A DNA stretch of 64,000 nt from Planktothricoides raciborskii GIHE-MW2. GTDB taxonomy: Bacteria; Cyanobacteriota; Cyanobacteriia; Cyanobacteriales; Laspinemataceae. A model generated the notes under the pieces. The model saw only the letters and a list, made by a program, of their open reading frames with translations. It did not search any database and had not been told where the DNA came from. The position numbers were made by a program, and so were the translations under genes. The DNA lies in NCBI RefSeq assembly GCF_040564635.1, contig NZ_CP159837.1, forward strand, positions 227,801 to 291,800. Reading direction: 5' to 3'. This document shows, in pieces, positions 33,685 to 34,646 of this stretch; position 1 is the stretch's first letter, and each line of letters begins with the position of its first letter.

Positions 33685-34203
33685 TCAAATTTTAGCTGCC
33701 TGACTCACTTGCTTATTTTTCTGCCATCTGGCGGCAATTTTTTTCATCTCTTCTATTTCCTCAAAATCGACTCGAACAACTGCGTTGGCAAATTTTACGC
33801 CCAAAACAGTGCTCACTTCAAGGATTTCTACAAAACTGGCACATTGATAATCTGTATTTTCATATTCTTGAACTCTTTTTTCATCAATACCCAAAATTTT
33901 CGCTAGTTCTTTTTGACTCATTTTGGCAGCAATTCTTGCTTTAATTAAAGCATCTGGAAGCTTATTAATACAGTCAACTTTGATTTCAATCTGCTGGCTG
34001 TATTGGCAATTAATCAACCGTTCATATTCATCAACTTCTGCTTGAATTCCCATGAGATGATATTGCAACACATCTCGATTCATTTTCCATCGTTCTGGGT
34101 CATTCTTTTGGGCGGCTTCATCTTTGTCCATTGCGGCGATGGATTTTTGAAATTTTTCCACTAATTCTCGGCTATAGTTGTACTCTAATTCATTTTTAAT
34201 CAT
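33685..34203 (-). CDS. XRE-family HTH protein with N-terminal extension (antitoxin-like)
   Basis: The HTH lies at MSQKELAKILGIDEKRVQEYE. The gene overlaps the upstream gene by 4 nt. Confidence 0.65.
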   Translation of the reverse strand: MIKNELEYNYSRELVEKFQKSIAAMDKDEAAQKNDPERWKMNRDVLQYHLMGIQAEVDEYERLINCQYSQQIEIKVDCINKLPDALIKARIAAKMSQKELAKILGIDEKRVQEYENTDYQCASFVEILEVSTVLGVKFANAVVRVDFEEIEEMKKIAARWQKNKQVSQAAKI

Positions 34204-34646
34204 AATTCAAATGTTGTTAAATCTATGGCTATAATTCCTTTTACATTTTGCTGGCGATCGCGCTGGAATAATTCAAAAGAATTAATTCCGTAATTCCCGA
34301 TCGCTTGCTGTGAGGGAAATATTTCTCCCCGGTATTTCGCTTTCTGTCCAGCCCGATCATAATGATTTAGTAATCGAGGGGCATTTATTCTCAGATAGTC
34401 AATGTCCACTGTTTCATTATCATAACACGCACCAAAATCTTGTGGGTTTGGTTTAATGGTGACAAAGCTGCCATTGATATAAATCGTTCGACAACCCGCT
34501 GCTGTTAATTGAGTCATTGCCAGTTGTAAACCCGCTATCATTCTCCTCCTCGTATCATTTGTACCAAATCGTTCCACAAACTCTTGCCAGTCACAAAAAT
34601 GCACCCCAGGGGGTAAGTTGCCGTTTTCATCAAATTCTGGAATCAT
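34200..34646 (-). CDS. Hypothetical protein, possible minimal nucleotidyltransferase-fold (toxin-like partner of the HTH protein)
   Basis: A GS-x9-D..D-like pattern (INGSFVTIKPNPQDFGACYD) is present, and the gene forms a translationally coupled pair with the HTH gene. The family is uncertain. Confidence 0.4.
   Translation of the reverse strand: MIPEFDENGNLPPGVHFCDWQEFVERFGTNDTRRRMIAGLQLAMTQLTAAGCRTIYINGSFVTIKPNPQDFGACYDNETVDIDYLRINAPRLLNHYDRAGQKAKYRGEIFPSQQAIGNYGINSFELFQRDRQQNVKGIIAIDLTTFEL

Follow-up and report, generated by a model that had tools for sequence, protein, structure and literature searches.

Experiments have established PD-lambda-2 as an abortive-infection system (PMC9519451; Vassallo et al. 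2022) made up of a HigB-like protein A, an Xre-peptidase protein B and a P4 beta-like protein C, the last of which is required for defence (PMC9519451). A 2009 study predicted fusions of Xre and COG2856 domains encoded beside exchangeable toxins (PMC2701414), and such fusions are today represented by RosmerTA-type systems (PMC10440598). MenT nucleotidyltransferase (NTase) toxins add nucleotides to the 3' ends of tRNA (PMC10435456). Here, we describe a pair of overlapping genes, A and B, in a 64,000-nucleotide stretch of the genome of the cyanobacterium Planktothricoides raciborskii GIHE-MW2 (contig NZ_CP159837.1, positions 227,801 to 291,800; hereafter the window), where the pair lies upstream of a gene for MVP. 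We propose, with a probability of roughly 0.6, that the two genes form an uncharacterised type II toxin-antitoxin-like module of a DUF6932/XRE type in which A is an NTase-like toxin and B is an XRE antitoxin, that the module is attenuated in this genome, and that its position beside MVP is incidental.

Genes A and B encode proteins of 148 and 172 amino acids (aa), respectively. Protein A matches the Pfam family DUF6932 (PF22014) over its full length (score 138.5 bits, cut-off 27; E 2.7e-40; model positions 1-142/142), and protein B contains an HTH_3 helix-turn-helix (HTH) domain at aa 87-138 (E 1.2e-7). Because of these domain matches, and because database searches returned more than 600 homologues for A and more than 600 for B, the two open reading frames (ORFs; 34646..34200 and 34203..33685) are real genes and not chance ORFs. 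The third ORF of the locus encodes MVP (33313..30689, 874 aa, with all vault/MVP Pfam domains present), and its start is 371 nucleotides (nt) from the stop of B; the protein shows 100% identity to one from Planktothricoides raciborskii. An earlier reading of the DNA, made from the letters alone and termed here the sequence-only reading, had described two genes that share a 4-nt ATGA overlap 371 bp upstream of MVP on one strand. These coordinates hold, and the strand, which that reading left unstated, is the minus strand for all three genes. Its placement of an XRE HTH in the C-terminal half of B is likewise borne out by the HTH_3 match.

What kind of protein is A? DUF6932 is, by sequence count, a sizeable family, with 2,646 clusters (defined at 50% identity) at E <=1e-3 when 1.84 billion representatives were searched with a profile. 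Among 118 diverse family representatives, G59, S60, D70 and D72 are the top-conserved positions (98-99%), with Asp at position 72 in 117 of the 118, and together they form the family motif G-S-x9-D-x-D (G59-S60-x9-D70-F-D72). Pol-beta NTases are recognized by the signature hG[GS]-x9-13-Dh[DE]h, and the spacing of the four DUF6932 residues fits this signature. When the AlphaFold model of A (predicted local distance difference test score (pLDDT) 89, predicted template modelling score 0.85) was compared with known structures by Foldseek, 2rff and MNT antitoxins ranked at the top, although at non-significant values (best E 0.034); the structural neighbours, all with weak scores, are 2rff, HI0073/1no5, AF0614/1ylq, 8xeh and 5yep. 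The sequence-only reading had proposed a minimal NTase on the basis of a GS...D..D pattern. The family motif and the presence of NTases as the top, weakly scoring structural matches support this assignment, and A is probably NTase-like, but the signature is incomplete in the window copy, which lacks the second Asp and reads G-S-x9-D-F-G. At the sequence level, A had no meaningful match in the Protein Data Bank by sequence and profile searches or with one MNT by hhalign, and the NCBIfam search assigned it no name. At E values of up to 1, neither Pfam nor NCBIfam nor PADLOC gave a DUF1814/AbiEii match to A, no HigB/RelE match was found in the same three collections, and no NTP_transf_2 or Polbeta match was found in Pfam. 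With 148 residues, A is also too short to contain motifs III and IV of DUF1814. The PADLOC candidate model PDC-M63A does match A (E 3.7e-13). Thus, the HigBA-like arrangement put forward earlier stands with regard to the toxin-first, HTH-second gene order and translational coupling, whereas membership in HigBA does not, given that A does not have a RelE/HigB fold; its model looks NTase-like instead.

Protein B consists of a helical hairpin (aa 5-64), an XRE HTH (aa 79-133) and a C-terminal helix (aa 147-171), and its AlphaFold model has a pLDDT of 91.5. The HTH is matched weakly by the MqsA-family model (E 1.9e-5, below the cut-off), and matches of B to the RmrA model are confined to the HTH region. 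Pfam detected no Peptidase_M78 domain in the 172 residues of B, and PADLOC gave no PDC-M63B match at E up to 1. DUF6932 genes at 36-38% identity are also present on proteobacterial plasmids. These genes are followed, in an overlapping or directly abutting manner, by genes for long proteins of 414-487 aa that carry an XRE HTH (one that Pfam misses in the Acinetobacter case) and, detectably in two of the three, a Peptidase_M78 (ImmA/IrrE) domain. The long partners from Agrobacterium and Acinetobacter plasmids match the PADLOC model PD-Lambda-2_B (E 7e-75 and 7e-78); the Agrobacterium locus additionally contains a PD-Lambda-2_C gene (E 5e-37); of such a gene, the Acinetobacter locus retains a short remnant. 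Residues 1-143 of B align from residue 1 with the N-termini (~140 residues) of the long proteins at 33-34% identity (E 8e-17 and 2e-19, and E 2e-10 for the Acinetobacter protein). Because B is homologous to the N-termini of the long partners yet lacks the peptidase, the cyanobacterial clade that includes the window is, on this alignment, a peptidase-less two-gene version of these loci. Moreover, the PD-Lambda-2_B model covers the long proteins from the HTH onward only, and thus the hairpin travels with DUF6932 and not with the peptidase. We infer that the helical hairpin is a partner-specific adaptor domain that binds DUF6932.

Two further family members differ in architecture. The sole viral relative (L115 3600-4866; IMG/VR UViG_3300037420_002493) contains an A homologue with 51% identity, followed by a 142-aa ORF that has the N-terminal hairpin of B and no recognisable HTH, and a separate upstream 87-aa ORF resembles, by eye only, an XRE-type HTH protein. 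This layout is a split arrangement of the domains of B and weakly supports the hairpin as an adaptor. On Klebsiella pneumoniae plasmid pKC25-20651A (L109 2492-3670), a 392-aa protein combines an N-terminal DUF6932 with an unannotated C-terminal region, and its gene adjoins that of a protein matching the Olokun OloA model.

The pair recurs widely beyond the window. A scan of one genome per species yielded 290 relatives, from which the best 79 loci, all from filamentous cyanobacteria or cyanobacterial metagenome-assembled genomes (MAGs), were kept and gave 84 A-B pairs. A B homologue is located beside A in 79/79 loci and directly downstream in 78 of them, and an identical 4-nt overlap is found at 66 of the 84 A-B junctions. 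The pair is duplicated in tandem at L034, L047, L059, L063 and L071, a second B copy is present at L013, and some genomes contain several pair loci. Plasmid-borne copies occur among cyanobacteria (Calothrix PCC 7716 p3 and Oscillatoria nigro-viridis plasmids), and the family is present in 34 plasmid records from cyanobacteria, Rhizobiales, Rhodobacterales, Acinetobacter and enterobacteria, with one Acinetobacter copy being Tn7-adjacent cargo. Phage carriage is rare, with a single IMG/VR contig and 0 matches in 50,697 phage genomes. Median identity is 73% for A and 52% for B, making A the more conserved protein, and in-frame premature stops in otherwise intact frames occur in 5/84 copies of A (L048, L061, L065, L076 and the second copy of L063, from 11012) and in 0/84 copies of B (one-sided Fisher p = 0.029). 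Judged by gene organization and distribution, the pair is a self-contained, horizontally mobile unit. It displays the gene features of a type II module, namely two small, co-directional and overlapping genes, one DNA-binding domain and a patchy, multi-copy, mobile distribution. The earlier suggestion of a toxin-antitoxin or defence-type module is therefore strengthened by a pair that is always kept together, multi-copy and plasmid-borne and that has PD-lambda-2-type relatives, and a role in defence is possible.

In the window, the module bears signs of damage. The D72G replacement (codon GGT) is exceptional, since the DFD sequence is found in 84/84 cyanobacterial A copies of other genomes and in 117 of the 120 best database homologues, and Gly72 is seen only in the window and in two Planktothricoides entries (P0001 and P0002). 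Three proteins that differ from window A by only 2-5 residues (P0003, P0004 and P0006) keep Asp72, which suggests that D72G is inactivating and arose recently in a Planktothricoides lineage. The Asp carboxylates of the motif bind the catalytic metals in Pol-beta NTases. With a metal-binding carboxylate position lost, the window A enzyme is probably crippled.

The region upstream of A has also changed. Most loci have a conserved region of ~55 nt directly upstream of A (for example, L023 9945-10000) that comprises an extended -10-like TGnTAnnnT element, ...TTAATTTGTG..., and a leader ending in GGTGTGAGGAA, followed by a start codon that is mostly GTG. RNAalifold predicted no pairs in the conserved leader of the other loci, and the leader was rejected as an N-terminal coding extension because in-frame stops interrupt it in many loci. 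This promoter/leader region of ~55 nt is absent upstream of A in the window and in L002, the nearest relative. The window intergenic region holds a TATAAT conserved with L002, and, relative to L002, an extra insertion of ~85 nt separates this common TATAAT from the A start. The insertion carries a 46-nt hairpin repeat of the form …TTATGCATCCCCCC-loop-GGGGGTTTGGGGGGATC. A second copy, 87% identical, lies at 26000-26045 (+) in the window, and further copies are present in L002 (14115-14159), L058, L039 and L060; upstream of A in L002, the repeat is missing. The 26000-26045 copy follows a TnpB/IS605 OrfB gene (24631-25896) at a distance of ~100 nt, for which reason the repeat may be a miniature element derived from an IS200/IS605 end. 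The same intergenic region contains a perfect inverted repeat, ATAATAAATTTTC-gg-GAAAATTTATTAT, 41 nt from the start of the divergent cytochrome c gene, and L002 has, by eye, only a degenerate version. Based on D72G, the loss of the conserved promoter/leader and the insertion of the repeat between TATAAT and the A start, the module in this genome is probably attenuated or decaying.

Table 1. Coordinates of the A-B locus and its flanking elements in the window
Feature	Position	Strand	Evidence or location
Gene A, putative minimal nucleotidyltransferase-fold toxin, DUF6932	34200..34646	-	Pfam
Codon 72 of A, GGT (Gly); site of the second catalytic Asp of the family	34431..34433	-	Family alignment
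Gene B, putative antitoxin and autoregulator	33685..34203	-	ORF, HTH_3, AlphaFold model
ATGA overlap (A stop/B start, read on the minus strand), putative translational coupling	34200..34203	-	ORF ends; 4-nt overlap in 66/84 homologous pairs
Intergenic region common to A and the divergent cytochrome c gene	34647..34829	.	TATAAT, inverted repeat, ~85-nt insertion
46-nt hairpin repeat element between the conserved TATAAT and the A start	34697..34742	-	Second copy, copies at other loci
B-MVP spacer, 371 nt, outside the module	33314..33684	-	TATAAT conserved with L002
Perfect 13-nt inverted repeat	34762-34789		Between cytochrome c gene (start 34830) and A

Which of the two proteins would be harmful? 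In type II systems, the HTH protein serves as antitoxin and autoregulator. This role of the HTH partner, the restriction of nonsense mutations to A and the stronger conservation of A suggest that A behaves like the harmful partner. We propose that A is the growth-inhibiting component, a small enzyme with a Pol-beta-type NTase core and a metal-binding G-S-x9-D-x-D motif. By analogy to MenT/AbiEii, A would nucleotidylate a cellular macromolecule, with tRNA or another RNA as the leading guess and a protein as a further candidate; MenT is the best available model for how such an NTase toxin can work. B would be the antitoxin, translationally coupled to A. It would use its N-terminal helical hairpin to bind and block A and its XRE HTH for autoregulatory repression of the operon promoter. 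The toxicity of A, its chemistry and its target, the neutralisation by the hairpin and the autoregulation are all inferred.

Several considerations weigh against this assignment. In PD-lambda-2, B is toxic alone and is rescued by A (PMC9519451), so that roles in the wider group can be counter-intuitive, and the related PADLOC candidate PDC-M63AB showed no anti-phage activity in a single test in E. coli NILS69 (PMC12409345). In the structural comparison of the model, A appears closest to MNT-type antitoxins and not to NTase toxins, and in the literature library searched, no paper mentions DUF6932 and no member has a test on record. The five-versus-zero asymmetry of nonsense mutations reaches significance only narrowly, and the genomes include several MAGs. 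As for autoregulation, no conserved operator was identified upstream of A in the loci compared, and the perfect 13-nt palindrome was rejected as a conserved operator, since no perfect equivalent occurs upstream of the other A copies examined. The first of these considerations leads to an assignment with reversed roles, in which B is harmful when unchecked and A neutralises it, perhaps by nucleotidylating B as MNT antitoxins AMPylate HEPN toxins. We regard this assignment as unlikely. The B protein of the window lacks the peptidase domain, the likeliest source of toxicity in PD-lambda-2B, and the five genomes that combine a nonsense-mutated A with an intact B should be intolerable if B needed A. 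The window itself pairs a catalytic-site mutant of A with an intact B. The existence of such A-null, B-intact genotypes implies that B alone is not lethal and thus speaks against PD-lambda-2-like reversed roles. Slightly less likely still is an ordinary regulator-plus-enzyme operon without toxin-antitoxin function, such as a small-molecule or antibiotic NTase (ANT/Lnu-like) under an XRE repressor. The multi-copy genomes, tandem duplication and conserved 4-nt overlap are traits of selfish or defence-type genes rather than of resistance or housekeeping genes, as is the presence of the pair on plasmids and in Tn7 cargo. Recurrent nonsense mutations in A and the swapping of its partner for PD-lambda-2B-like XRE-peptidases, along with PD-lambda-2C, also disfavour an ordinary operon, and A (148 aa) has no room for the substrate-binding C-terminal domain of ANT enzymes. 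A toxin-antitoxin-like module with A as the toxin remains the preferred explanation.

The neighbouring gene raises a different alternative, namely that the pair works with MVP, for example as a vault-associated transferase like vPARP or in the control of MVP expression. The sequence-only reading had raised this co-function, and the arrangement at first sight favours it: the three genes share a strand, the 371-nt spacer showed neither a terminator-like site on the minus strand nor a predicted intrinsic terminator, and the order is kept in L002 (A 89% and MVP 94% identical). However, L002 is the only one of the 79 loci with MVP within 10 kb of the pair, and the pair is thus conserved without MVP in the other 78, the outcome that the sequence-only reading had itself named as refuting its proposal. 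Conversely, both A and B are missing within 6 kb at five other cyanobacterial MVP loci (78-91% identity), and the genes around MVP differ in every one of them. Two of these loci, L110 and L113, have a divergent gene upstream of MVP, so that MVP must have its own promoter there. In the window, the spacer holds a TATAAT ~195 nt upstream of MVP that is conserved with L002 (78% identity to L002 over 157 nt). The vPARP analogy is unsupported as well, because vPARP is an ADP-ribosyltransferase that differs from a Pol-beta NTase in fold and chemistry. A functional link to MVP is largely refuted by this distribution and is, in our view, highly improbable; the place of the pair beside MVP is best read as a lineage-specific accident, and a vault link receives no support.

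Other genes around the locus complete the picture. A PIN-domain (VapC-like) ORF (29878-30306, +) lies just past the 3' end of MVP, and MVP thus has toxin-antitoxin-type genes on either side. On the other side of the locus, genes for a small cNMP-binding protein (35314-35697, -) and a CHAT-domain protein (35788-38424, -) are found. Matches to the cyanobacterial MVP also include many metagenome contigs of ~2.5 kb (L080-L101; 47-63% identity) in which there is little apart from the MVP gene. They gave no usable gene context, and exact-protein look-ups supplied the MVP loci compared above. These contigs are possibly transcripts of eukaryotic MVP, in which case bacterial and eukaryotic MVP would share a strikingly high identity.

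The analysis removes the tempting idea of a bacterial MVP with a conserved NTase partner analogous to vPARP. The module of this genome is probably a passenger in decay, and its local biological importance would accordingly be low. The broader significance lies in the family: a sizeable domain of unknown function is given a testable role, in which it appears to fill the toxin slot of a two-gene module whose other protein has an N-terminal domain in common with PD-lambda-2B-like defence proteins. Should A prove to be an NTase toxin, DUF6932 would constitute a third, minimal lineage of NTase toxins beside MenT/AbiEii and would show one toxin family switching between simple antitoxins and protease-containing sensors. 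We tentatively extend this idea, as a conjecture that we hold less probable than the toxin-antitoxin assignment itself, to DUF6932 as a large family of minimal NTase toxins that employ interchangeable partners via the hairpin adaptor, either a plain XRE antitoxin, as in the cyanobacterial clade, or the XRE-ImmA/IrrE peptidase sensor found in anti-phage systems of the PD-lambda-2/Rosmer type. On this view, the cyanobacterial pair would be a stripped-down defence core whose NTase toxin has a new chemistry or a new target.

How does the pair compare with described systems? Like MenAT and AbiE, it would use a Pol-beta-type NTase domain as the toxin of a two-gene module. However, A has no DUF1814 match, lacks the bilobed C-terminal motifs III and IV and is approximately half the size, and here the toxin gene comes first and the antitoxin is an XRE protein rather than AbiEi or MenA. 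MNTs of HEPN-MNT systems are the nearest structural neighbours of A, with a similar size and, as regards the family motif, the same G-S...D-x-D active site, but A has no NTP_transf_2/Polbeta Pfam match and its partner is XRE rather than HEPN. HigBA and MqsRA share with the pair the gene order, the overlap and an antitoxin that combines a toxin-binding N-terminal part with a C-terminal XRE HTH, whereas A is not a RelE/HigB or MqsR ribonuclease and B has no zinc-binding domain. In the case of PDC-M63, A and its proteobacterial relatives match PDC-M63A (E 3.7e-13 to 6e-6), whereas B does not match PDC-M63B. PD-lambda-2 differs in that its first gene in E. coli is HigB-like rather than DUF6932, its toxic component is B, and its third, P4 beta-like gene has no counterpart in the window, where the next gene downstream is MVP, without a PADLOC match. 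The window B also lacks the ImmA/IrrE (Peptidase_M78, COG2856) domain of PD-lambda-2 and RosmerTA, which is detectable in two of the three proteobacterial DUF6932 partners. Nevertheless, both systems share with the pair a small toxin-like gene in first position and an overlapping gene for an XRE-HTH protein in second, and the Agrobacterium and Acinetobacter DUF6932 partners match PD-Lambda-2_B and are homologous to the window B over their first ~140 residues. The pair is evolutionarily connected to PD-lambda-2/Rosmer-type loci.
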